Assembly (NCBI RefSeq): GCF_000143415.4
Contig: NW_003314276.1
Location: 707,630 to 771,629 of the forward strand
Direction: 5' to 3'
Source: Selaginella moellendorffii
Taxonomy: Eukaryota > Plantae > Lycopodiophyta
Length of the DNA: 64,000 nucleotides
Shown: positions 1 through 32,305 of the stretch, one piece after another
How positions within the stretch are numbered: the stretch's first letter is position 1
How the letters are laid out: the number at the start of each line of letters is the position of its first letter
Program-made: the position numbers and the translations under genes
Notes under the pieces: generated by a model
What the model saw: only the letters and a program-made list of their open reading frames with translations
Told to the model about the DNA's origin: nothing
Databases searched by the model: none

Positions 1-2946
1 GTAAAGGTCTCACTTGGTCCTTGTGAAGCGGATCTTCAAAGTACGGCTTGAGTAGGTTCACATGGAACACCTCTCTCGAGGAAGTCGGAGGTGGTAAGCC
101 ACTTTACCGATTGGTGCCTTAATCTCGTAAGACCCTGCGAACTTGCTTAAGGAACTCAAGATCAGTTCATTTCTGGGAATACATAACTTCCGGCTGATCC
201 CACTTGGTAGCCTTAGATTTTTGGTGTTCAGCCACACCTTCTCCCTAGGTTGGAACTCTATGTCCCGGCGCTTCTAGTTGGCATACTTAATTTGCCTTTG
301 TTGAGCCCGTTCCAAGGGATCCCTCACTAAATTCCAAATGTTGAGCCTTTTCACCATGAATACCTCCACTACGGGTAACTCTCCATGATACTCGGCTACG
401 CTGAGTTCCACAGGACCTTTAATAGCTCACCCATTGATGATTTCCCATGGACTCACCTCGATACTCGAGTGTGGTGAATTGTTATACCACATTTCCACAA
501 GTCCCAAATGACTTACCCAATCGGTCTGGTCTCCTAAGACATAGCATTGCAAATAATCCTCCAGCTGCCTATTCACCCTTTCCGTTTGTCCATTTGTTAA
601 GAAGTGTTAATGCCATCAAACTTGACTTAATACCCAATACCTATTTGTGGGTGATAGGTTGTGCTTAATTTCAACTTGGTGCGATATTGTTCCAAGAGAG
701 TTCTCCAGAACTTACTGGTGAAGATCTTATCTCGATCTAAGATGATCTCTTTTGGCCTTTTCCGCACTCGAACCACCTATTCAAAGAACAGCTTTGCCAC
801 ACCTTCTGCATCCACATCCGTTGTGGTGGGTATGAAATGTGCCATCTTCGAAAATCGGTCTACCACCACGAATATCGCATCGAACCCCTCACTTGGGGGG
901 AGTCCCGTGATGAAGTCCATAGTAAGACATTTCCACGGGTGATTTGGATTTGGGATGCTTTGTAACAAGCCCCCACTAGCCTTAGTCACGGCTTTAACCT
1001 ACTGACATGTTGGACATGTCTTTACATAGTCTTGGATGTCCTTAGCCATATTTGGCTAGTGATATTTCCTCTTGAGTAAGCCCATCGTATTGGGCACTCC
1101 ACCATGCCCCGCAAGAGGTCCGTCATGACACTCTTCTAAGGCTACCTTCTTTAGTTCCCCTTCTGGAATATACATCCTTGTCTATTTATAATAGATGAGT
1201 CCATTGTGTTCCGTATAGCTTGTTTTCTCTTCCGTTGGCAGCTCACCTCTTTGGTGAGCTTCCCGTGCCTCTCGGTTCCTTAGCAACACTTCTTGTGCTA
1301 GACTATCATTCTCATATACTGTCCGCACATCATCCCAAAAGGTTGCTGTCGTGCTGGATATTGCCAACTTTAAGTTTGCTTTTCGACTTAGAGCATCTGC
1401 CATGATATTGCTCTTCCCAGGCTTGTATAGAATCTCGCAATCAAACTCGGCCAAAGCATTGGCCCACCGACCTTGTTTCCCTCTTAGGTCGGGCTGTGAT
1501 AAGAAGGGTTTTATTGCCACATTGTCTGTGTAAACTTTGAAGTGCCTCCCAAGGTAGTGTCACCACTCCTTGAGTGCCTTGACCACCGCAAATAATTCCT
1601 TCCCATGGGTAGGCCACTTTCGCTGAGCCTTGTCCAACTTCTTCAAGAAGAATTTCACTGGGTGGTTGTTTTGTTTCAAAACTGCGCCCAATGCAAAGTC
1701 TGAAGCATTCGTTTCTACCTCAAAGGCTTTACCAAAGTTGGGTAACACTAACATGGGGGTCTTCCTCAACTTCCATTTTAGATGGACAAATGCACCTCAC
1801 ATTTTGCTATTCATACCATCTTCCCCTTACTCGTTTGGTTTGTTAAGGGTAGGGCTACTTTCAAATAGTGTTTGATAAACTTTTGATAGTAGTTGCATAG
1901 CCCCAAGAATGCCCTCAACTTATGTACATTTGATGGTCGCTCCCATTTTCTAGATCGCTTGGACCTTCTCAGGGTCCACTTTGAGCCCATCCTTGCCCAC
2001 CACATGCCCAAGAAACTTTACCTCATGTTGAGCAAAGTCACATTTGCTCTCTTTATTATACAACTTGTGTTCCCTTAGTTTCTCAAACACCTTCGTCAAG
2101 TGTTTGGCATGCTCCTCTAGCGTCTCACTATAGATTAGGATGTTGTCAATATAAACGACCACAAAGTGATCTAGATAGGGTACAAAAATGTGGTTCATTA
2201 GTGCCGAAAATGCTACCAGTGCATTGCACAGCCCAAAGGGCATCACCAGAAACTCGAAGCTTCCATACCTTGTTTGACAGGTTGTCTTCTCGACATCTTC
2301 CTTTGCTACCCTGATCTAGTAGTATCCTGACCTTAGGTCAATCCTCGAGAAGTATTTTGCATTTCCCAACCTATCAAACAGGTCCTCAATCTTTGGTAAA
2401 GGGTACTTATGTTTCTTTGTATACTTGTTGAGCAACCGGTAGTCTATGCATATGCGTATACATCTATTTTTCTTTTTCACAATAACACCGGTGCCCCATA
2501 CGGCAACTTACTCAACCTAACATACCCTTTATCCACCAACTCTTTTAGTTGGCACTTGAGCTCCTTGAGTTCCTTTTCGTTCAAACGATAGGGGGGATGA
2601 ACCACCACCTTAGCACCCTCGACTAGTTCAATCTTGTGTTCTATCGGTCATGCAGGGGGCAACCCTGCTGGTATCTCCTCTGGCATGGTATCCTGGAATT
2701 GGTCCAACACCTGCTAGATCACTAAAGGTACTTTTTTCGTTCCCTTCTTTTTGTCATTCTTCCCCAAGAGTAAGCAAAAAAATGCTGCCTTGGTTCCTTT
2801 AGTGAGTTGTCCTCTCGTGGACACCAAGTTTAAGCAGAAGTCTTTGGCTTTACATTGCCCTACCTTTAGATTTTGGGCCTCCACCCTAGATCGTTCTCCC
2901 CGGGCATTCACCAATACCACAAGGTTCTTCCCTTGTCCATGCAAGG

Positions 2947-16507: not shown

Positions 16508-19247
16508 CATCTACTAGCCCTCCGAGGGAAGTTCGAAGGTAGCTTTGTTAAGATCCTTATTGACACGGGTGCTTCGGATAATTTTGTGGCTGCAGACATA
16601 GTCCGGCAAGCCGGACTAATGGTGCAGCGGCTAGGCGAACCAAGGACTATAGAGTTTGTTCAAGGTAGCCAAAGCACCGATGAGGTACTTCGACAAGCGA
16701 GAGTCGAAGTGGGGACTTGGAAGGTGGACATGGATTTCACCGTGTTGGACATGGCGGGATTTGACGTGATCTTCGGAATGGACTGGTTCAATCGATTCGT
16801 GGTAGCCCTGCATGGACAAGGTAGAAACCTTGTGGTACTGGCGAATGCCCAAGGAAGAAGATCTAGGGTGGAGGCCCAAGATCTAAAGGTAGGGCAAAGC
16901 AAGGCCAAAGATTCCTGCTTAAACCTGGTGTCCACGAGAGGACAACTCACTAAAGGAACTAAGGTGGCCTTTTTGTGCTTACTCTCGGTGAAGAGTGACA
17001 AAAAGACAGGAATGGAAGAAGTACCTTTAGTGATCCAGCGGGTGTTGGACCAATTCCAGGATACCATGCCGGAGGAGCTACTGGCGGGGCTACCCCCAGC
17101 ATGACCGATAGAACATAAGATTGAGCTAGTCGAGGGTGCTGAGGCAGTGGTTCGTCCCCCTTATCGTTTGAACGAAAAAGAACTCAAGGAGCTCAAGTGC
17201 CAACTAGAGGAGTTGGTGGACAAAGGGTATGTTAGGTTGAGCAAGTCGCCGTATGGGGCGCCGGTGTTATTTGTGAAAAAGAAAGATGGATCTATGCGCA
17301 TGTGCATAGACTACCGGTTGCTCAACAAGTATACAAAGAAGAACAAGTACCCTTTGCCAAGGATTGAGGACCTGTTCGATAGGTTGGGAAAGGCAAAATA
17401 CTTCTCGAGGATTGACCTAAGGTCAGGATACTACCAGATCAGGGTAGCCGAGGAAGATGTCGAGAAGACAACCTGTCGAACGAGGTATGGAAGCTTTGAG
17501 TTTCTGGTGATGCCCTTTGGGCTGTGCAATGCGCCGGCAACGTTTTCGGCGTTGATGAACCATATCTTTGTACCCTATCTGGATCACTTCGTGGTCGTCT
17601 ATATCGACGACATCCTGATCTATAGCGAGACGCTAGAGGAGCATGCCGAACACTTGGTGAAGGTGTTTGAGAAACTAAGGGAACACAAGCTGTATGCTAA
17701 AGAGAGCAAATGTGACTTTTCTCAACAAGAGGTAAAGTTTCTCGGGCATGTGGTGGGCCAGGACGGGCTCAAGGTGGACCCGGAGAAGGTCCAAGCGATC
17801 CAGGAATGGGAGCGACCAGCCAATGTACATGAGTTGAGGGCATTCCTGGGGCTATGCAACTACTATCGAAAGTTTATCAGACACTATTCGAGAGTAGCCC
17901 TGCCCTTAACGGACCAAACAGGAAAAGGGAAGATGGTGTGGACAGCGGAATGCGAGGCGGCATTCGTCCACCTCAAAGGGAAGTTGAGGAAGGCTCCCGT
18001 ATTGGCATTACCAGACTTTGGTAAGGACTTTGAGGTAGAAACGGATGCTTCGGACTTTGCGTTGGGCACAGTTTTGAAGCAAGACAACCATCCGGTAGCG
18101 TTCTTCTCGAAGAAGCTGGACAAGGCTCAACGGAAGTGGCCTGCCCACGAGAAGGAATTGTTTGCGGTGGTCAAGGCGCTCAAGGAGTGGCGACACTACC
18201 TTGGGAGACACTTCAAGGTTTACACGGACAATGTGGCAACGAAACACTTCTTGTCACAGCCCGACCTAAGAGGGAAACAAGGTCGGTGGGCCAATGCCTT
18301 GGCCGAGTTTGATTGCGAAATTCTGTACAAGCCTGGGAAGAGCAACATCGTGGCGGATGCGCTAAGTCGAAAAGCGAGCTTGAGGTTGGCAATATCCAGC
18401 GCAACAGCAACCTTCTGGGACGATGTATGGACAGCATATGAGAACGATGGTCTAGCACAAGAAGTGTTGCTGAGGAATCTAGAGGCGCGGGAAGCTCACC
18501 AGAGAGGTGAGCTGCCAACGGAAGAGAAAACGGGCTATGCAGAACGCAACGGACTCATTTATTACAAGCAAACGAGGGTGTATGTTCCAGAAGGGGAACT
18601 AAGGAAGGTGGCCTTAGAAGAGTGTCATGACGGACCTCTTGCGGGACACGGTGGAGTGCCCAAGACGATGGGCTTACTCAAAAGGAAGTACCATTGGCCA
18701 GATATGGCTAAGGACGTCCAAGACTATGTAAAGACATGTCCAACATGTCAGCAGGTAAAAGCCGTGACTAAGGCTAGTGGGGGCTTGTTGCAAAGCATCC
18801 CAATTCCAGATTGCCCGTGGAAATGTCTTACGATGGACTTCATCACGGGACTCCCTCCAAGCGAGGGGTTTGATGCGATATTCGTGGTGGTGGACCGATT
18901 TTCGAAAATGGCACACTTCATACCCACCACAACGGAGGTGGATGCGGAAGGTGTGGCAAAGCTGTTCTTTGAACAAGTGGTTCGAGTGCGGGGAAGACCG
19001 GAAGAGATCATCTCCGATCGAGATAAGATCTTCACCAGTAGGTTCTGGAGGACTCTCCTGGAACAGTATCGCACCAAGTTGAAATTCAGCACAGCCTATC
19101 ACCCATAGACAGGTATGGGGTATTGAGTCAAGTTGTGGGAACTAACACTTCTTGATAGACGGACAAACGGAAAGGGTGAATAGGCAGCTGGAGGATTATT
19201 TGCGATGCTATGTCTCGGGAGACCAGACCGATTGGGTAAGTCATTTG
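16508..19247 (+). pseudogene. Pol: aspartic protease, RT, RNase H, integrase (N-terminal part)
   Basis: [31 protein letters not shown] zinc finger, SDRD. In-frame stops at 17102-17104 and 19106-19108. Putative intron 19113-19158. Cut by the DNA transposon. Confidence 0.95.
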
Positions 19248-19689
19248 AAGCTCTATTTCGTTAAAGTGGGAATTGTCATTATCCTACTTGTAAAATAAGG
19301 TTTCCAAACCTTTATATAGTATATAAATATAACAAAATTCAACTGCATTGAGGCACATGCCATTTTATTTTAAACAAGGAAATGTCTACTCAATCACTTC
19401 TCCTCCCCCTGCCACTGCTTCACCTCTCTCTTCTCCTTATCATCGTCGTCCAATTTCTTTCCATCCTTTTAATATTGGCTCAGTTGCTCCGAGTTTAGGT
19501 GGAGCCCAAGTCCCCATTCAATCTTTACTTTCCCATTATTAATAAAACAACTTCGTAGACTTCCAATAACATGCTGTAACACTTCTAGTATAATGCAAAT
19601 CCTCTCAAAGAATTGTCTTTTAATATTAATACAATGGCATGGAACCCCATGCCATAATAAGTTACATTTTTAAATAAATATATGCCATC

Positions 19690-22600
19690 TCAGACTGTTA
19701 TTTTTTGCCTCCAACGCCTATACAATAATCTTGGAATTTCATCACTCTCCACACTATCAGGATTTAAACCCAATAGTAATGCCATCTCTTCTCTAATACG
19801 TCCACGCTCATGTTCAGTGGTCGAAGAACCCATCCGGTTGAGTAGATTATGGAGATGCGGATAGTGCTTGGCTAGACAATATACATGCCATAAATGATGA
19901 CTGGTGTCTGTCCGATCAAATGGCTTCTGATATACCGTTCCATCTGCCATTTGGTTGATTTCTGCAGCCACCTCCTGGACTGGCCGGTTCTCTATCACCA
20001 TCGCTCCAAGCCGTTTTGCAAGGTCCCCCAGAACATACAGTTTCTTCTCCCTAGTTTCCATACTGCAAGAGATGGGGTGCACTGCATATGTGTGCGTGTT
20101 CGCTGCAGTTTTAATCGGCGAGTCATCGATGATGAGGATTTCACTTGAGCTAGCAGTCCGGTTCATCACTACAGCCTCTGGCTTGACGAAGATGGGCTTG
20201 CTACCCCTCACATGGACCATAGTCAAGCAATCCTCCTGCGTTAGGAGAAAGTCAAATGGTAATATTACTCGCGTCTGATCGTGCATCATCTGTAGCAACG
20301 TTAATGCATTGTGGCGCATCATGGATGTCCAAACTCCCAATTGCAAATTGAACCCGGCCCTCTATTTTAAGTGTCGCATGGTCATTATTAGATCCCGCAG
20401 TTTCTCCCGTGTGATTAATGTGAATCTGTCTCTTTTGACCAACTTGCGACCGCAGGCTTTGGAGGGTGCAATGACATTCGAGGACGAGCCACGCTCATGG
20501 GAGAAAAGGACACCGTTCAGATCAAAAACGATACAGTACCTTCGCTGTGACTCTGAAATGAAATGCGTCAGCATAAAAAATGGTACAAGTCAATTTTACC
20601 ATCTACAATATTAGCGAATGTTGCTCCCGATGGTCGTTGAGAGGGTTTTGGTCAAGGAAACGTGAAGGGCGGAAATACTCTCCTCTGCAATGTGGGGTCA
20701 ATCGCATCCGATGGCATGTGGGCACATGCCATTTCAGCTGTAGACTCTGGTACAACTGGCTCAACAGTGGCATGGGGTGGCTCCGATGGCGTGTGATCAC
20801 ACGCCATTTCAGCTGGTGCCTCCGTTGGCAAAGTGGACATGACCGAACAGGCAGCAGGGGCGGTGTAGGGAGGTTCCAACGGCGCGTAGTCAGACGATTG
20901 GGCACACGTTGAGTTCGTTGGAAATGAGGATACGACCGGCTCGGCGGCTGGGGCGGCCTCATGTGGGTCCAATGGCGCCTGGTCACCGTCAGTTGGATAC
21001 GTGGACAAGATTGACTCAGTGGTATGGGCAGCATCAAGTGGAGCGTGGTCAGCTTGCTTGGCGTTGATATGGATAGTAGCCTCCACCAGCTCTGATGACT
21101 CTTGCAGCCAAGTAGAGTCCACTGGCGGATCCATATGCATGTCCAAATATCTCCCTTCGATTGAGATGGTATCCTCTCGTGCTACTAAAAACAAACTCAT
21201 TAGCACATTGAATCGACTATACTGTATTTACCATCAACTGCTATTGAGGAACTAGGACCGATATCACTTGGGCACACTGCTGATTCTGAAGGATTGGACA
21301 TACGTTTCGACCCTTGCTTGGCACTATCCTTCCTCGACACTAAAGGCTAGAGTTTGTAAATTCAACTGAATAATCTCTACTTACCATTTGCTCTGCGACC
21401 TACATGGACAATGTTAGAAATGGTAAAAGGTTAGGAATGGATGTACTATTATTTACCTGATGGTTTGTCTTGTATGACCTTCCTTCGCTGCTCTTTGGCC
21501 ACCTCAGGCTGGCCATCGTCGTCATCATCGTCGTCGTCGTTATTGTGATCGTCACCATTGTGAGGACCATCCAAGTCCTCTTCGTCCTCCTCTTCTTCGT
21601 CCTCCTCTTCTTTGTCCTCCTCTTCGTCCTTCTGCTCTTCCTGCTCATTATCTTTCTCTGGCTCCTCATCCCCCTCCTGCATTTCTTCCATAGGCTGCTC
21701 AGGCTGGATGGCTTGTTCTTCCAGGACCATCTTGGGAAAATCATCTGGCCGAGTCTCCATCTCAAAATACAAGACATCCATAGCCTGTTTTAGTGCGTGA
21801 CCTAGGACCGTATCCTCACCCGACTGTCTTAACATGGTTTCTGCACGTTCTTGCACCCTTCGAAGACGACAAGATGAGAAAAACGTGGCCCTGACTTGAA
21901 AAGCTTCCCTCATCCATTGTACCTCTCCATTGAGATTGGGGAAGGGGAGTCCGCCATAGGAATCTGAGTCATGAGGTGGTGACTGCCTGCTTTCACTCAG
22001 CCCTTGATCTGCAATGAATGGCATGAGCACACACGCCATAACCGCGAGGCATTACCTATCATCTTTTCGTTGCCCTTCTTCCTTTTCGAATCAAACGCCT
22101 CTGATCTCGATGACTGTCCAACGTGCTTTCACTTTTTATGACCACTGTCAGTTTGAGCTTGGCTGGTGCTTGCCTGTTTTGCCTTTGAAGAAGTTTCTCC
22201 TGCAAGGAATGGCATGAGACCACACGCCATTGCAAATATAATTTGTACCTCCTTTTTTCCTATTGCTTGTCTGTTTGTCCTTCTTCGATGCGCCACCAGT
22301 GCGCTTTTCAGTCCTCGTGTCTGAATATTCACAACGATCTATAATCAAAATGGCGTGAGGCCTCACGTGACCTTACCTTGTGCAGGTTGTGAGCTCGGCC
22401 CAACATGGGTATCTTCAACAGTAGCTGTTAACGCCGTTTCAGCATCTGGGGGTGGCCATGCTCCTGCATACAGAGCTTGTGAGATAACATTTAAACTTAA
22501 AGTGTGTACTCACCAGGTTCGCAGAGAAGATACTGTTTTTCTTTGGCAACTGTAATTATATGCTCCATTGAAGTCACCTCTTCAATGGAGTTTGTCACCG

Positions 22601-25309
22601 CAACACACGGGACACCCTTGAGTAGTGCGGCTCGAAAGAATAGTCCGCCGCAGTTGTACTCGACAACGCATTTGCCCTTGGAGTCGGAAGCAGGTGACCC
22701 ACCCGCTATTGCGTTGAAGACCCAGCTGAGCATTTCCCATGCTGCACCTAAAGCTTTCTTTGGATTCGAAAGCTCCATAGCCGTCTTCAGTTCCTCAGGC
22801 ACGGGTAAATTGACCTCCCTCAGATCAATTCGATTGGCCTTGTCGAACGAAGCTGGGAAGTCACTCTAGTCCCACTCTGCTGTAAGACCAATAACAAGGG
22901 CGAGTGTGAAGATGCGGACATTCGTCGGTATCTTCTTCTTAGCCATTATCCCATGGATCTCCCGCATCTCCTTGCCTTTCAACCGAGCCTTCACCTCGTT
23001 CAAGGCCTTCCAGAACTTGTGATAGGATTCGGAGTCGTAGATCATATAGTGGACTGAAGATTCCACCTCCGCAAGTCCCACCATTAAGTCAATGATGGAG
23101 CTGACTTCGTCTGCATGAGTGATCTCCTTGTTTGTGAAGTCCATCACACAAAAGATGTTCTTGACTTGCTCATCTCCGCGGGAAACGATGCTCCTCCACC
23201 TTTGATCCTCATCCGAATTCAAGTATACCCGGTAAGGTTCTCGATAGGCCTCTGCTGCGTGGTCGAGCTGTTTCTGAAGCCGACGGTCGACATCAATCTT
23301 AATGAAATTTGGATACTGATCCAACTTCTCAGCTTTACTTTTCGTGGCATCCCGCAGCAGATCGATGAACTTGGGGGCCCCCTTCACGTACTCGTCGATG
23401 TCTTCATTTGACAACTCCAGCGCTTCCATCATCTCTTGCGTGGTGTCGATGCTCACCCTCTCCACGGCCACTTGCTCGAAGATCCAATCCTTCAATAGCG
23501 CACGAGCTCTCAGAGTCGTGCACAAGTCCTCGTATGTCACAATATGGCCGGGAGTCATTTTGGTCTTGTTGAAGACTACCTCACCACGTAGAAGAGCATT
23601 AGCCACTGTCAGAAGGTCGTCGTCGTCTAGAGACCGCGAGAAACGCAAGGCGTTGAACTTCAAATCATTGGGCTTCCGGCCGTCCTCCACACCCATTGAG
23701 TTTGGCAACTCCCCGTCATGGTACCTCCTCAGCACATCTACCCATTTGTCAAAAACAACTTTTGTCGCGAGTAGAATGTTATGGATGCTGAGTGTATCAT
23801 TGACCCCCAGTGTTTTCGAGAGAAGACTCGAGAATTCCTACAATGGAAATGGCGTGAGGCCACATGCTATGCCACATGCAACGAGGCTTACCTGCCAGGC
23901 GCTAGTTGCTAGTGCACGTCCTTGTCCTGGTTTTTGTGGCTTCTTCAGTTGAACCCAGAGCTTCCGTGTTCGTGCCAATGTCTCGTGCAGACCCGATTTG
24001 TAGCACGTTTCTTGCTTGACATTCTGCGCGTGGGAGATGTATATGATAGATCGGAGGGGCGAGTTGCCTTTTATCAGGCAGACAACTCTTGTCTTGAAGA
24101 CTTTCTTCACCTCCTCGCCCACCATAATATCCACAACTATCTCTTGCATCGCCAAGCTAGAATGCTGCCCGGAGACGGCATAGAACCGGATGTTCTGATC
24201 GTCCAACACCTTCCTATTGATCAAGTCTGGAAACCTCGTCTCGCCCTTCATTGTTCGGTAGTAGGGGATCACGTCTGCGATGTCGGGTGTTACTGGACTT
24301 GCCAGCATCTTCTGCTTCAGTTTCTCCACCCACTCATTAGATACTAGCCTGTGGTTGTATTTGCTTTGGATGTCGATACGGCTCACGTCGATTGTATATA
24401 CTTTGTTGGAATAGTAACAAGTACTATTATCTGCGACGATTTTTGCTGCCTCTTCTTGCTCTTTCTGCTCTTTGCGGCTCTTCTTTTTGGTGGGTGTAGT
24501 GTTCGAACCCGAGGCAATGGCATCACCGAGTAGCTTCTTCTTTGGAGCAGGAGATTCGGACGTCGGCTTGAGCTTGACCACCCTTTTCTGCTTCGGGGTA
24601 GTTTCCAGATCGACCCCCTTCCCCTTCGCTTCGCGAACTGGAGGCACTCTCAATGGCTCAATGTTGGAATATAGTTTTTGAACATCGCCGTAGGTGAGGT
24701 CCGTGGATTCCATGTGATCTTCATAGACCCGCAGCGTCTTTGAAATTGTGGGCCTCCTGGACAACCTCTCCCTAGCTCCCTCTAGGAATTCCTCATAGCC
24801 GCTACCCCCCTCCGGGAAGCCGCTAGGATGTGCAAGGTGGATCTTGAAGGCAGACGCTGTCTCTACCACAAGTGCCAGTCCATATTCTTGCATGGAACTG
24901 CATGGAGTATCTGTCACTTGGATGAGGATCCCCATGCATTCTTTTCTCCCACCATCTGTGTTGTACAGCCTCAGATCCTCGCCTTCCATCCCGAAAGTCC
25001 AACTGGTGAGCTCCTCCCCCTTCTCTACATCCACATTGACAGTGGCTGGAAGAAGAACGCAATTCCTCGCCTGTTCAGAAATGCACAACAATTAGAGCTG
25101 ACAGATGAAAAGCTAGTAGCTGGAAATAACGTGAGGCCACACGCCATTCACCACTGCATCAGATGTCTTGAGGCTGCATCCTAAGATGGCGTGAGGCTAC
25201 ACGCCATCTGTAACCGGACTGCACTCGAGAGCCCAATCGGTGCATGCCAATGTTGCTACTGAATGGCATGTGGCCTCATGCCATTTTCTACTTGGCCTAA
25301 AAGACTTAC
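19690..25309 (-). pseudogene. Multi-exon transposon cargo gene: ParB-like + degenerate N6/N4-MTase-like + acidic linker + FCP1/HAD phosphatase-like
   Basis: ORFs 23838-25091, 22866-23735, 22497-22802, 21449-22039, 20652-21206, 20362-20574 and 19690-20346 join in frame through short GT-AG introns and a few single-codon stops. Motifs YAVSGQHSSLA, VVEYNCGGLFFRAALLKG, FDLNGVL...VWTS...LIIDDSPIK. 5' end uncertain. Confidence 0.7.
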
Positions 25310-26528
25310 CATTTGAAGCCGAATGGAGGCGTGACAACCGGACTCGCTAGCGAATGTGCACTGTGTGTGCAGCGGATCGTAGCAGCAAGGCTACTCTGCC
25401 ACTTACAGTTGGAGAGTGGCGCTGAAATCTCCCGGGACGCCAAGTGGGCTGCATGTGGGTGGCGGAGTGGGCGGCGGAGTTGGCGGCGAAGTTACAAACT
25501 GGGTGTGTCTTGAAGTGGACGCCGATGCACATGAGCGTGATGCGAGCGCGAGTGTGATGCAAGCGCGAGTGGACGCCGATGCACACGAGAAACCTGTAGA
25601 GAAGTGGGAGCGCGATGCGAGCGCGAGTACGAAGCAAAATGCAAAACCTAACCTCACACGCGCGAAATGTCACGACGGTTGGTAATCCCGCCACGTCATC
25701 ATTTCTCAGACTTGGGCGCCACCATTAATTTCTGGATCGGCGCGCGCATGTGTGAAATCCAAAAGAAATCCGCAACGTCATCATTCCTCGGACTGCATGC
25801 ACGCGAAATCCAAAAGAAAGATCATGATTGGGATATCATTTAATACCCTCGCTATATTTATACCATGCATGATTGGATATTCCAAAGCATCTTGTATTTC
25901 CAAAAATGCTAGATGTTCAGCTAAATAAATTGTTAGAGGATTTGATGTGACGTTCAAGCATGTGGGCTCATGCAATTTTGATCCCAAAAAATGCACCAAA
26001 AAATGCTCGGCGTCATCTGGCGTTATCTCTTGAATGGCGTGGGGCCGCATGCCATTTTCAGGAGCACATAGGAGTATATTCCTAGAATATTCTGACACGC
26101 GCGAGATTGTTTTGAGTTTCCTGGAGATCCAACCGTTAGATCGCAACTAGATTTTACAGAATGGTATACAATGTCCTTCTTGATGACCCTGAAAAGAAGC
26201 ATCTCGATCGGACACCACATGAGTCCACACGAGCCTTACAATGTTTCAGGGGCATTTGCCATAGATCCGACCGTTATTTTGCTCCAAGATTCTACAGTTT
26301 GGTGTGCATTGACCTTTCCATCGACACTGCAAAGGGACATCACAATCAGATGCGGGATCACAAGAAACCAACTTCACTAACTCTGGTTTCACCAAGATCT
26401 ACGTAAGGAGTTATGAAATGAAAGGACCCTCTCTATTGAAATGTGTTTATGGTCCTAGGGGCATTATGACATATCAAAGGATTTTGCATCAAGTTCTGTA
26501 TTTGCATGTTTATCAAGCTACTGAATTG

Positions 26529-26560
26529 CTAAACCCTAAACCCTAAACCCTAACCCTAAA
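26529..26560 (+). repeat. Short interstitial plant telomere-type repeat (CCCTAAA)n / telo-box cluster
   Basis: CTAAACCCTAAACCCTAAACCCTAACCCTAAA. Confidence 0.8.
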
Positions 26561-27669
26561 CATGTGGCAAATGCTGCATGAAGAAAGATGCCCTTTCTGG
26601 GCAAATGCTGTAAGAGGCAGATTCTGAGCAGATGTATCTCAGGCCAGCGAAGGGGACAAACGAAAGCTAGCTATAAACATGACGGGATGCAAATAGATTA
26701 CTAGGCTGGTCCTGCGAAAATCAAAAACCATAATTGAAAACATTGAAAATGCAAAAAGAAAGGTTTATAATATTTTTGAATTTTAAGCAACTAAATGAAT
26801 GTAAGTAGGGCACATGTTTGTAAGTTTAAAAATGCCTCAACCACTTAAATTCCCAAGTAAATAAAGCTGTTTCTATTTTTGGTACAGGTAAACTTTATAG
26901 CGTGTGGGCTCATGCAATTTTGAACCCAAAAATGCACCAAAAAATGCTCGACTAGCATTATTCTTTGAATGGCGTGTGGCCTTATATTGCCATAAATGGA
27001 CGTACACACACAGTATAATTATTCCTTTACACGGCGAATAATCTTGGCGCGGATCGCTGACATGGCATGGCAAAGTTCGAATCACTGACATGGCACAGCT
27101 GGATCGAGGCAAGGACATGATGTGACAAAGTTCAACCTCCGACAGCAAAGTCTAGAAGCTACTCAGTTTGAAATTTGTCAGAGGAATCATAAGATCTGGT
27201 TTGTCAGAGGATTTGATGTGACGTTCAAGCGTGTGTTATTTTTGAATTCTCGAACTCATTCCTAGGTCTATCATTTTTGTGCGCCGTGTTCTTGGTTCCG
27301 CTGAGCGCAGTGAGCGCTGCTTGTGTAAGCGGCATTGTGAGCTGTGGTTTATGCGTCTACAAGCGGTTGCGGCATTGCGATCGCCAGTTTATGCGAGTGG
27401 CAGTTTGTGCGAGCGGCGCTACGAGCAGTTGCGGTGTTGCGAGCGGCGCTACGAGTAGTTGCGGTGTTGCGAGCGGCACTGTCTTTGGTGTGACTACCGC
27501 TTCCTCTTGATATTCGGCACTTGTGCTTCCTGGTATGTTCACCATGGAATGGTTTAGGACCACATTTAGAAATGGCATGAGGCCACATGCCATCTTAGGC
27601 CCTTGCAATTTCATGGCTAACGTATTGTCATGTATGTTTTTACTTGCCTGCAGCTGTGTGTATATCAAG

Positions 27670-27861
27670 ATGGCATGAGGCCTCATGCCATCTTTGGCCC
27701 CTACTAGCCTATTGCCATATTCCTTTTGCCTTGCTGCAACTGTATATATTTTTGTATGGGTGACTAGTCACGCACACAAAAATATATACAGTTGCAACAA
27801 GGCAAAAGGAATATAGCAACAGGCTAGCAAGGGCCAAAGATAGCGTGAGGCCTCATGCCAT
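27670..27861. repeat. 192-bp imperfect inverted repeat bounded by two palindrome units
   Basis: Arms pair around the centre GTGACTAGTCAC (27760-27771). Confidence 0.9.
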
Positions 27862-27952
27862 TAGTGGTACCACTAATGGCATGAGGGCTCATGCCAATTT
27901 TGTGAATGCGAAATTTCACGTGGGTGTCAATAGCATGTTTGAATAATGGCAT

Positions 27953-30885
27953 GTGGCCTCATGCTATTTGGTATGTTATGATTTAGGCGAACGAGGAGAG
28001 ATGGTCGTCGGGGTAAATGTTGTTGTTGCCTTGAAAAATCTACAGAAGAAAGCAGATGTTGGGGACAGCGCAAGTGCGACGCATGTTCCCTCCGTGGATC
28101 TTAAGAACCGTGCTACATGGATTCAGGCAAAGGTGTTTCTAAACAACCCCGAGGGGGAGGTGGTAGTTGAGGGCTTAGCCACAGTTGTCGATCCAAGAGA
28201 TGCGGTTGCTAATCAAGAATTGGGCTGGGATGATATTGGAGTTGCGATTTTAGAGGTTGTTGACATAGAAGAAAACAGTCTGACTATTGGAAGCATTGTG
28301 CGGTGGAAATTGAGGCATTTAGTGTTTGAGAATGTGAAGGATTCACAATCAAACACCACTACAACTGATGACAGAACATCTCTTCATGGGAAAAGAAAGT
28401 ACACCTTCCTACAGTGCAGCCAAAGGGATCTGAGCAACGAACCGAAAAGGCAGAAAATGGCGATGGAGGTTCGAATGGTCTCGATAGTTGCTTGTTGCAA
28501 GAGGAGGTGCTGTCAACATGCTGATTGGGATGCTATTGAAGAGGAGAGAGCAAGATACAAGACATTGTCCTGGAAGGCAGCTTGCAATTTTGTGTATGAG
28601 GCATTACGGTCATCTGTTGATGCTTCAGAACATTAGGTGGGGGGCATGGTCTTCCAGAGGGGTTTGGTCTGCATGAAGGCATGGAGAATCATTTATGGAG
28701 TCCCTCAAAGCACATTCTACAGAATCAAAACTGAGTTCGAGGAACAAAGGGTTCAACAGGCAGTCCATGGGAACGACGGTACGCACAAAACCAGGGGTCA
28801 TGTTGTATATGGAGAGGCAATCTTCAAGAGGTTTGTCGAGACATGTAGCAAGCAGCAACCACATAAAACCTGCCTCTTGGAAGATGGAACACGAGACACC
28901 CAACGAGTTCTCCCTTCCATGTATACCAAGGGGCCATATTGGAAGATGTGAATCGGGAACTCCAGAGTAATGGCTACAGGAAGCTGAGCCAATCTAGATT
29001 TAGTAGATTGTGGAGCAACAGGTTCAGGGATGTGAGTATAGGAAAGTACTCCAGCTTTTCAAAGTGTGACGAGTGCACTGCTATCAAAATGGCTTTGTCG
29101 AAGAATTCTTGCAGCGCTCAAGAGCGAGAGACATTGGTTAGAAGGCGGCTCGACCACAACATCGAGCAGAGAAGCTGCAGGACTGCATATTATCATAACA
29201 GGATTCTCTCCATGGAGAGACCTGACTCTTACCTCTGCATCATCCACGACAAAATGGACCAGAAAAAGACGTGCTTACCTCGACTCAATCCTGCCCCCAA
29301 GGCAATCTCTTCATCCATGCAGCTGCCTGTGTCTCTGTTTGGCATAATTGCTCATGGGCATGGTGCCCAGAACTATGGGTACTTCTTTGTACCTCTATGG
29401 GGTGGCGGGGGTGCAAACATGATGATTGCGTCCCTAGCAAAACATTTAAGGTCTCTACAAAGTGCGCAGACTGAGCTGAACGGCCAACCCTTGCATAAGG
29501 CCCTTGTCAATTGAACCCCATACAGGGTTCAGCTGGAGGAGGAGCAAAGGCTTGCAATATCGCGTGGGGCCCCATGCCATCCCAGTGAATATGTTGGCCG
29601 TCAGATTGTAGGGTTATCACGTGAGGCCTCATGCCATTCCGACGAGGCTGGTCGCCCAGTGAATGCACAGCCTCATCCAAACGAAGCAGAATCTCAAGGA
29701 AGTTCTTGCGGCCGATGTGGCCTTCCACCCCATCTTCTGCTCCAAACAGACAATGCTGGCAGTGAGAACAAAAACATGTACGTCTTCGCGTACTTGGCGA
29801 TGCTTGTTGCCAAAGGCATATTTGAAACGGTTACACTTGGCTTTCTCATGGTTAGGCACACTCATGAAGACGTCGATGCCATGTTCAGTCACCTGGCAGA
29901 GTCCCTCCGGCGATCCAATGTCCTCACCCTCCCACAACTCTACGATGAATTCCAAAATTGCATCAAAGGCACTGTTGAAGCTGCACTTGTGACAGAGGTT
30001 CCAGACTTTAAGGGGTTTGTAAAAGGCTACATTAGGGATGGATCCGAAATGCTGATTGGCCACTCCAAGCCTCTTCAGTTTCATTTCAGCATGCGTGACG
30101 GTGCTCCAGTGATGAGGTACAAGATGAGAGAATGGGACACAGTGTGGCTGCCAGTGGATGGCATTGAACTCTTCAAGAGAGATCCCATAACTGGGGAACC
30201 TATGATTCCTCAGGGTTCCCCACGGCCGATGCACCCGGATGGACTCAAAGACCAGGAAAGTATAGTGGCCGGGATTAGACAGCATATTGCCTTCTGGAAG
30301 AGGGGGTTGGTGTTTGGTGGAGAATCCTATTTTAAGAGGTGCAAGCCTTTGCTCGAATACTGGGAGAAGATTATATCTGCTATCCAAAATGGGCCGGTTG
30401 TATATGAAGAATTGGAAGAGTCCTTTTGGCCAGAACCCAGAGCACTAGATAGTAGCGGAACAATGTCCTCTGGAAATGCAGTGACAGATAACGATGTTGA
30501 GGATCACTATTGTGGGCCGAGGAACAAGAAGCCGGATTCAGCATTCAATCCAGTACAGGTCTGCAAAGGAATGGTCGTGCTTGTCAGACCCAGTAATAAA
30601 AAACAAATGATATGGGTGGGGCGCTGCATCACTGATGCAGAGGAGGACGTGGAAACTAACTCCTTCAATGTAACTGTGGAGTGGTTCAAGCCAAGTTCCG
30701 GATATACGAAGGATTGCCTAGAAAAGAGATGGGTGCTGAATCCAAGGGATCCCAGCATGAGCATATCGGTGGATAATGTTGTGCATGGTTGGATGCAGAA
30801 GCAGAGTGCCACCATCACCTTGCCAGACCATGCAAGAGATGCAGCAAGAGCATTCATAACCCGGGTTCAAGGTGAGATTCATTAA
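27953..30885 (+). pseudogene. Sola-like DDD transposase, disrupted
   Basis: FSKCDEC, IIHDKMDQKKT, LQTDNAGSENKN...FLMVRHTHEDVDAMFS. Stops at 28634 and 29512 and a frameshift near 28940. Start uncertain (ATG ~28001). Confidence 0.8.
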
Positions 30886-31574
30886 TATTCCTTTACTAAG
30901 TTTCTAATGTATTTTATTTCAAGGTGAACAATCCGAATCTAAATCAGAGGAGGCGTGATGGCATGTGGCCCTTTGCACTAGTATATCTTAATACCGGTCT
31001 GAGAAATAGAATGGCATGTGCTCTCAGGCCTTTTACTAAATCACCTTTGAAAGAAATGCAAGCCTCTATGTCGTAAAAAAAAGGTACTAGAGAAATTCCT
31101 TAATAATATGAATGTTATTTAGTTTCATGAAAATACACTAAGGGTCAAATGAGTTAAATGACTTCTCCAGACTAGCAATGCCTCTTGCTACACCTTCACA
31201 ATTAGATTCGTTAGAAAAAGATAACATTGAATAATATCTAAATGTTCTCACCATTAAGTTATATGTCTGGCTAATAGGAATAACGTTCATCTTGGAAAGC
31301 TCACCACACGCTCAATGAACAAACAAATAGTGTGTGCGCGCATGCCATCGCTCTTCTTTAGCTTCAGATTCGGCTTGTTCACCTTGACAATGAGATTTAT
31401 TATACAACCAGATGGACTCAGTCTGGACACAAAGTCACCGCGCTAGTCACCATGCCCCAGATATGTCTAGCCCCTGGACAAAAAACATATAATTTCACGT
31501 CATTTTCAAATACTTGAAAATTTGTACCTAGTCCCATTTTACTGAATAAATCCCACTTTAACGAAATAGAGCTT

Positions 31575-32305
31575 TTTGGGACTTGCGGAGATGTGTTATA
31601 ACAACTCACCACATTCGAGTATCGGGGTGAGTCCATGGGAAGTCATCAATGGGCGAGCTATTGAAGGTCCTGTGGAACTCGGCGTGGCCGAGTATCATGG
31701 AGAGTTGCCTGCAGTGGAGGCATTCACGGCGGAAAGACTCAGCATTTGGAACCTAGTGAGGGATTCCTTGGAACGGGCTCAACAAAGGCAAACCAAATAC
31801 GCGAACCAGAAGCGTCGGGATGTAGAGTTCCAAGCTGGGGAGAAGGTGTGGCTGAACACCAAGAACCTCAGACTACCAAGTGGGATCAGCCGAAAGTTGA
31901 CCCAAAGGTAAAGATGCATGTATTCCTGTAAATGAATTGATCTTGAGTTCCTTAAGCAGGTTCGCGGGGCCTTACGAGATTGAGGCACGAATCGGTAAAG
32001 TGGCTTACCGACTCCGACTTCCTCGAGAGATGGGGAAGATGCACCCAGTGTTCCACGTGAACTTACTCAAGCCGTACTTTGAGGATCCGCTTCGCAAGGA
32101 CCAAGTGAGACCTTTACCTGAGGTTATCCAAGGGGAAGAGGAATACGAAGTCGAGGCCATCCTCAATGCGCGCAAGAGCAAGCAACAAAGACGCGAGGTG
32201 AGAGAGTTCCATGTGAAGTGGAGAGGATTTCCACACTGCGAAGCAACATGGGAACCGGAGGAGAACCTAGCGAACGCTCGAGATCTAATGGAGGAATTTC
32301 TGTAA
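31575..32305 (+). pseudogene. Integrase C-terminus (GPY/F motif) and chromodomain of gypsy copy B
   Basis: KLTQR|FAGPYEI across intron 31908-31959; EEEYEVEAIL...VKWRGFPHCEATWEPEENL. Confidence 0.92.

Follow-up and report, generated by a model that had tools for sequence, protein, structure and literature searches.

A 22-bp palindrome dispersed in a Selaginella DNA transposon, a candidate protein docking site that overlaps predicted branch sites in tiny introns of the ParB-like cargo gene

Why would several of the smallest introns of one gene each hold a copy of the same palindrome? The question is raised by the cargo gene of a 12,327-base-pair (bp) DNA transposon in Selaginella moellendorffii, which lies in the 64,000-nucleotide (nt) stretch analyzed here (contig NW_003314276.1, positions 707,630 to 771,629; hereafter, the window). 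A preliminary description offered three answers: that introns are neutral places in which to hold binding sites, that a hairpin in the pre-mRNA gates splicing, or that a palindrome-bearing unit created the introns. On balance, we consider it probable that the palindromes are double-stranded DNA docking sites of the transposon's own protein, most likely the ParB-fold cargo protein, and that they double as predicted branch sites in three of the tiny introns. The first of the three options is thus the best supported, although the introns would not be purely neutral holders, given the overlap with the branch motif.

A palindrome of fixed geometry

The palindrome has the consensus ATGGCRTG-N6-CAYGCCAT (22 bp). 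Allowing up to two mismatches, it occurs 20 times in the window, against 0.01 matches expected and none in 100 shuffles, and all 20 sites lie within the transposon. With up to three mismatches there are 23 matches, against 0.84 on average in 50 Markov samples, and the transposon holds 22 of them. The geometry hardly varies: when spacers of 0 to 12 bp were scanned, the 6-bp spacer gave 20 sites and every other length gave 0 to 2 in the element, and 32 of the 37 perfect half-sites belong to full sites. For the remaining comparisons we tabulated 24 sites, which are the 25 element matches at up to four mismatches minus the one at 27544 (four mismatches, off-consensus). Spacer positions 10 and 13 are complementary in 21 of these 24, a pairing that a 6-nt RNA loop could not use; together with the fixed spacer, it suggests a site built for a DNA-binding protein that acts as a dimer. 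The variable R/Y pair shows no significant covariation (Fisher p 0.37).

The sites avoid coding sequence. Only 4 of the 24 are coding, though coding sequence makes up 64% of the element (p 3e-6), whereas 7 are intronic and 13 lie in other noncoding DNA; the density is 10.4/kb in introns and 3.4/kb in other noncoding DNA (p 0.023). Two groups of sites stand outside the introns:

20711..20807, no strand assigned: two palindromes in a low-complexity linker of the cargo coding sequence
25955..27967, no strand assigned: eight palindromes between the two head-to-head genes of the element

If the sites serve the cargo protein, a dimer of it would bind the symmetric sequence as ParB binds parS, and the bound protein might mark the element's own copies and act on their chromatin, through anti-silencing or self-regulation. 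Sites would arise or spread wherever sequence is unconstrained, old introns included. Within an intron of 47 to 54 nt, overlap with the branch site may be the easiest way to accommodate a 22-bp site, and it would fix the site 9 to 11 nt from the intron end.

Tiny introns and predicted branch sites

The gene model on which the intron analysis is based is as follows.

19690..25312, minus strand: cargo gene, predicted with 11 exons and 10 introns (1,650 codons) in a phase-consistent model, ATG at 25312 and stop at 19690
25071..25309, minus strand: intron 1, phase 0, directly after the ATG; palindromes at 25126-25147, 25186-25207, and 25263-25284; its own CTAAT at -22
23838..23891, minus strand: intron 2, 54 nt, phase 0, ancient position; palindrome at 23849-23870; CTCAC with predicted branch A at -18
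22464..22513, minus strand: intron 3, 50 nt, palindrome-free; CTCAC at -17; required for the frame
22321..22376, minus strand: intron 4, 56 nt (alternative acceptor at 22339); degenerate palindrome at 22350-22371, abutting the donor
22200..22248, minus strand: intron 5, 49 nt; palindrome at 22209-22230; CTCAT with predicted branch A at -16
22009..22055, minus strand: intron 6, 47 nt; palindrome at 22018-22039; CTCAT with predicted branch A at -16
21400..21456, minus strand: intron 7, palindrome-free; CTAAC at -15
21340..21384, minus strand: intron 8, palindrome-free and without CTVAY; a 4-nt family indel inside; the preceding 15-nt exon is uncertain
21185..21231, minus strand: intron 9, palindrome-free; CTAAT at -16
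20553..20599, minus strand: intron 10, palindrome-free; CTGAC at -16

Five of the predicted introns carry palindromes and five do not. The five GT-AG intervals first noticed on the minus strand are all present, with three palindromes in intron 1 and one in each tiny intron; the latter end 9, 9, 11, and 11 nt short of the intron's last base, with the AG counted. The proposal that splicing these five alone opens the frame did not survive, as the palindrome-free intron 3, absent from the preliminary description, is also needed and four in-frame stops remain in the window copy (22868, 22131, 20654, and 20364). Family DNA contigs from sequencing run X4 have, among the matches listed, sense codons at 22868, 20654, and 20364. 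Adjacency of the palindromes to the 3' splice site holds for three of the four tiny introns. Intron 4, whose palindrome has three mismatches, probably ends at 22321 rather than 22339: in the 56-nt form the A of its own TTGAT branch motif lies at intron position 32, and the branch A of the 38-nt form would lie at position 21, compared with positions 32 to 43 in the seven other tabulated tiny introns. With the 56-nt form and its own TTGAT, the palindrome would sit at the donor, not at the branch site.

Introns 2, 4, 5, and 6 are predicted introns, and homology backs intron 2. The cargo homolog P0014 aligns across the intron 2 position with an exact 18-residue gap, and nine of 11 homolog open reading frames (ORFs) stop 1 to ~30 residues past the valine at the aligned position (read by eye), endings that a phase-0 GT intron predicts; one stops earlier. 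The homologs sharing this position are 24 to 28% identical, and one cargo homolog comes from the liverwort Calypogeia fissa. The position is therefore ancient, and the palindromes did not create intron 2.

Branch sites were scored against the branch-point consensus. Read in the sense direction, the end of the spacer and the right arm of the palindrome give CTCAY. In introns 2, 5, and 6 the A of this CTCAY falls at -18, -16, and -16, respectively, and belongs to the sole branch-like motif at a usable distance there. Four of the five palindrome-free introns have CTVAY at -15 to -17 (0 of 20,000 shuffles), and when eight introns were aligned unguided, the CT of the palindrome stacked on the CT of the motifs in the palindrome-free introns. 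The sense-strand CTCAY occurs at all three sites in introns 2, 5, and 6, compared with 5 of 17 non-intron sites (p 0.05). Under uniform placement, the chance of the observed palindrome position is 0.007 for the three introns, or 0.03 with introns 5 and 6 counted once.

These placement probabilities, and the lack of any other usable branch-like motif in introns 2, 5, and 6, bear on the idea that proximity to the 3' splice site reflects packing only, with the real branch points elsewhere or degenerate. Several observations speak for packing: there are only two to three independent cases, as the last 31 nt of introns 5 and 6 are 90% identical; the palindrome lies near the donor in intron 4 and in a related locus described below (L033); and in host introns (52 to 86 nt), branch-like motifs read by eye spread from -14 to -25 in 9 of 11. 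Overall, we regard packing alone as very unlikely.

The intron sequences also bear on the proposal that the introns arose from an introner-like mobile unit that carried the palindrome. The palindrome and a TTGCAG acceptor are common to introns 5 and 6 and to a further block present in other copies of the element, as such a unit would predict. For intron 2 the proposal is refuted by the conserved position. Aligning the introns to each other, as suggested at the outset, revealed likeness limited to the palindrome and acceptor in otherwise unrelated bodies: the 5' parts of the four tiny palindrome introns are no more alike than shuffles (P 0.05 to 1.0), and no terminal repeats or duplications beyond AG/G were found at them. 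Furthermore, no palindrome-bearing intron occurs outside the transposon in the 64-kb window. Intron creation by such a unit is thus most improbable. A weaker form is plausible for 22009-22055, 22200-22248, and the extra block, because the near-identical ends of introns 5 and 6 and the additional block at 22158/22161 in run X3 suggest local duplication within the linker, and it is probably through such copying of a palindrome-plus-acceptor block that some linker introns acquired their palindrome. In the family copies in question (run X3), the additional sequence at 22158/22161 is at least 255 nt long and ends in that block.

Could the palindromes instead act in the RNA? A hairpin in the pre-mRNA might hide the branch adenosine and gate cargo splicing, as autoregulation or tissue-specifically, besides or instead of a role in DNA. 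For introns 5 and 6, the fold of lowest energy is this hairpin (z -2.5 and -1.7), in which pairing of the branch A is predicted (P unpaired 0.00 to 0.01). Retention of any palindrome-bearing intron gives a stop codon, and for intron 1 both retention and splicing from a donor within a palindrome are observed. However, in intron 2 the hairpin does not form (z +0.5) and the branch A is unpaired (0.88 to 0.96), only two of the four tiny palindrome introns form it, and the branch A of the palindrome-free intron 3 is predicted to be as paired as those of introns 5 and 6. The invariant spacer length, the location of 15 of the 22 element sites (up to three mismatches; 4 of the 15 coding) outside introns, and a motif built like a double-stranded DNA site also argue against gating. 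Hairpin gating therefore stands as a weak claim, and we consider it rather unlikely.

RNA evidence is concentrated on intron 1. A check of RNA junctions, one of the tests first suggested, confirmed the acceptor but not the donor: a run X2 contig, whose RNA status is a guess, skips 25071-25142, using the acceptor at 25071 and a donor at 25142, inside the third palindrome, rather than at 25309. Other RNA-like contigs retain intron 1. The RNA-like contigs with this intron derive from a diverged chimeric copy and their RNA status is likewise a guess, which limits what their retention says about gating. The tiny introns fall outside the coverage of runs X1, X2, X9, X10, X13, and X20, an edge in X1 excepted, and these runs have no bearing on them either way; in the raw RNA runs X9 and X10, ~12% of each searched, no reads fell on cargo exons or tiny introns. 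One contig of X1, a DNA-like run, extends 25 nt into 23838-23891 unspliced. Contigs from X2 and X13, which belong to two studies, join the element at 25304 to the same foreign sequence, apparently a chimeric, transcribed copy elsewhere in the genome.

A combined possibility, which we put forward tentatively and consider doubtful, is that a single 22-bp sequence serves the ParB-fold protein as its loading site and that protein's own gene as a branch point, with occupancy or the hairpin feeding back on cargo splicing. If the sequence has both roles, binding specificity and spliceability would be locked together.

The cargo protein, its transposon, and related elements

The assignment of the sites to the cargo protein depends on its predicted domains.

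23892..24470, minus strand: ParB/Srx-fold domain, predicted (model pLDDT, or predicted local distance difference test score, 76.7)
22514..23837, minus strand: helical region, then a methyltransferase-like segment (likeness by eye only)
19690..20552, minus strand: last exon, NIF/HAD phosphatase-like domain (PF03031, E 0.0014, 18.8 bits, under the 21.8 cut-off)

For the model of 23892-24470, Foldseek places Noc, ParB, and sulfiredoxin highest (best E 1.4e-4), and VIA-align pairs it with PadC (Z 9.7, root mean square deviation 2.8, 100 residues aligned) and KorB (Z 8.9); in the ESM Atlas a ParB_N cluster appears only at rank 29 (score 0.88). After this domain come a putative helix-turn-helix (HTH) and a putative degenerate methyltransferase, both by-eye resemblances. 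The region 22514-23837 has no Pfam match and no PDB sequence match, and its single-sequence fold (pLDDT 34) is uninformative. PDB sequence searches with the cargo protein returned no ParB or methyltransferase match, word-index protein searches found no full-length cargo homolog, and searches of metagenome and prokaryote collections with a ParB alignment recovered no such locus. In the homolog P0014, residues 1-24 look like the histone H3 N-terminal tail (best E 0.033 against H3 peptides), which would fit a chromatin-directed role of the cargo family.

The element that carries the gene is delimited at both ends.

19248..31574, no strand assigned: DNA transposon, 12,327 bp, defined by a terminal inverted repeat (TIR) pair, an interrupted Gypsy long terminal repeat (LTR) retrotransposon, and an empty-site joint
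19248..19274, plus strand: left 27-bp TIR; target site duplication (TSD) TTTG at 19244-19247
31548..31574, minus strand: right 27-bp TIR, 26/27 identical to the left; TSD TTTG at 31575-31578
27947..30885, plus strand: DUF7869 transposase, broken in the window copy (PF25273, E 5.7e-39); palindromes at 29559 and 29616 in a variable coding loop

The host sequence around the transposon is a Gypsy LTR retrotransposon split by the insertion, and a contig of run X3 preserves the empty site (joint 19243->31575, 4-nt overlap). The plus-strand transposase, whose homologs are 38 to 43% identical, and the minus-strand cargo gene stand head to head. Run X3 covers nearly the whole element at 98 to 99% identity, with differences that are mostly A>G and T>C, which suggests that the copy in the window is a degraded member of a repeat family. 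TIRs and a 4-bp target duplication are features of Sola1, and DUF7869 is, we presume, a Sola1-type transposase. The target preference of Sola1 is AWWT (PMC3845634), whereas the TSD at the window insertion is TTTG and a second flank, in run X3, ends in AAGA. The element is Sola1-like and is not assigned to Sola1, as its target departs from AWWT and its transposase is placed only in DUF7869.

Related transposases place the palindromes in a wider group. A related transposase occurs at 69 metagenome loci, and 11 of these, from about six families, have at least three copies of a 22-bp palindrome of their own, compared with 0/69 in each of two shuffles; the filter behind this count was set after inspecting the loci and excludes the AT-rich L001, L013, L021, and L059. 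The window motif itself occurs in none of the 69, and a search of viral contigs for the palindrome-plus-acceptor pattern gave no match. Palindromes are thus a trait of this transposon group, and their co-occurrence with ParB is observed for the window element only. L033 carries its family palindrome within a transposase intron; other loci share the intron position without the palindrome, a pattern that reads as a site entering an old intron. Downstream of the transposase, the family palindrome of L047 (3404-3668) and of L048 (3284-3575) forms a 27-bp tandem array. One locus, L064, from a distant, AT-rich host, has a ParB-like ORF (69-485, minus strand, E 1e-4) head to head with an intron-rich DUF7869 transposase. 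Five others have head-to-head cargo ORFs of 460 to 510 amino acids, all on the minus strand, that are not ParB-like: L023 (118-1596), L029 (164-1684), L031 (565-1950), L039 (136-1545), and L044 (564-2015). None of the five has a recurrent palindrome, and the L023 and L031 ORFs have no curated Pfam match beyond the coiled-coil type.

These loci allow a second candidate for the bound protein to be weighed, namely, the transposase, which might use the sites as internal enhancer-like or transcription-regulating elements. Transposases are flanked by family-specific palindromes at loci that yielded no ParB gene, the window transposase has a cluster of eight sites upstream, and transposases can be sequence-specific regulators (10.64898/2026.08.24.746577). 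Against this, the motif shows no resemblance to the TIR, the five relatives with long non-ParB cargo ORFs show no recurrent palindrome, and ParB-fold proteins are stated to bind palindromes (10.1101/2025.02.11.637652). We consider binding by the transposase unlikely, and retain the cargo protein as the preferred ligand.

Several observations weigh against docking by the cargo protein with overlap of branch sites. No ParB-like gene was detected in the 11 palindrome-bearing relatives, most of whose contigs end within 2 to 3 kb upstream of the transposase, and L064, which has such a gene, lacks a long recurrent palindrome and shows just four CACGTG cores (a pattern picked post hoc). The intronic palindrome of L033 lies close to the donor rather than the branch site. 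Nor does intron 4 conform to the overlap, as only its 38-nt form would, with a donor-to-branch distance of 21 against 32 to 43. The branch points are predictions from two to three independent introns, and the boundaries of the palindrome-free introns were set by eye from frame continuity. Finally, 6 of the 7 mixed R/Y sites would allow G-U pairing on the transcribed (sense) strand (p 0.06), a slight lean to RNA pairing that also favors hairpin gating.

Other features of the element were noted in passing. Some family copies have an additional 223 nt at 27988-27989, in the 5' part of the transposase, and this segment and the one at 22158/22161 suggest that the window copy or its subfamily has deletions. 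A near-perfect 190-bp hairpin (91%), bearing a palindrome at either end, occupies 27668-27862, a short way upstream of the transposase; it is a possible source of small RNA, and an Rfam scan gave only microRNA-precursor matches to 27566-27897, all subthreshold, and no match to the intronic palindromes. A short run of TTTAGGG-type telomere repeats occurs at 26532-26564, between the two genes. Upstream of the cargo ATG, the 40-nt piece 25370-25409 matches a very abundant RNA (X9 and X10 reads; X2 contig depth of 1,052), whose flanks resemble what we take to be large-subunit rRNA; the Rfam scan listed no entry for this piece.

Comparison with known systems

ParB-carrying algal transposons with inverted repeats are already known. 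The 21.5-kb Sola1 element of Ectocarpus, Sola1-1_Ec32, has an opposite-strand accessory gene for a ParB-like plus N4C/N6A methyltransferase protein, and the authors propose that such ParB-like proteins bind and modify their own element (PMC12477816). Both it and the window element are giant DNA transposons with ParB-like cargo on the strand opposite the transposase. In contrast, the window element resides in a land plant, and its cargo of ~1,650 codons has a NIF/HAD-like end and only a by-eye likeness to a methyltransferase; a dispersed 22-bp palindrome overlapping predicted branch sites is not mentioned for Sola1-1_Ec32 in the accessible text. The accessory gene PAG3 of a Bostrychia Plavaka element encodes a ParB-like plus 2-oxoglutarate (2OG) oxygenase protein, with adjacent inverted-repeat arrays proposed as its sites (10.1101/2025.02.11.637652), and thus likewise pairs a ParB-like accessory protein with the element's own inverted repeats. 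It differs in superfamily (Plavaka/EnSpm), in effector domain, and in having tandem arrays beside the gene, whereas the window sites are single and dispersed in introns, untranslated regions (UTRs), and coding linkers. The window element shares with ParB-carrying transposon accessory genes both a ParB-like domain and element-specific inverted repeats near the accessory gene. ParB-HTH methylases are treated in PMC4738411, and PMC5751038 and PMC6839031 are further sources for comparison.

Comparable, too, are VANDAL elements of Arabidopsis, whose accessory protein VANC binds family-specific noncoding motifs, including in introns of its own gene (PMC5735166, PMC10398659); TnpA and transposases act similarly (10.64898/2026.08.24.746577). 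Enrichment of family-specific motifs in noncoding parts, introns included, is found in the window element as well. However, VANC motifs are 9-nt, nonpalindromic, same-orientation tandem sequences, in contrast to the dispersed palindromes here; anti-silencing is demonstrated for VANC and is proposed here by analogy; and the accessible sources report no ParB fold for VANC. The bacterial ParB/parS and Noc/NBS systems share with the window element a ParB/Srx fold, predicted here, beside palindromes of fixed geometry, at an identity of 11 to 14%, and the likeness is one of fold alone; no ParA gene was seen in the element. Introners resemble the window gene in that several short introns share sequence, and differ in that the sharing here is limited to the palindrome and acceptor, one position is ancient, and there are no terminal repeats.

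A literature search, which covered neither subscription papers nor the supplements of the algal papers, listed no paper in which the binding motif of a transposon also serves as a branch site. Neither a defined, dispersed palindrome in a land-plant element of this kind nor its overlap with predicted branch sites was encountered in that search. For ParB-like accessory genes of algal transposons, binding to the own element has been proposed, and the accessible parts of those papers report no tested site. The sharply defined 22-bp candidate site, together with relatives that have different palindromes, makes specificity and co-evolution directly testable in a land plant. If the site is also the branch point, a DNA-binding code and a splicing signal would share the same bases in very small introns, which would be a route for a selfish element to couple self-recognition to expression of its regulator.

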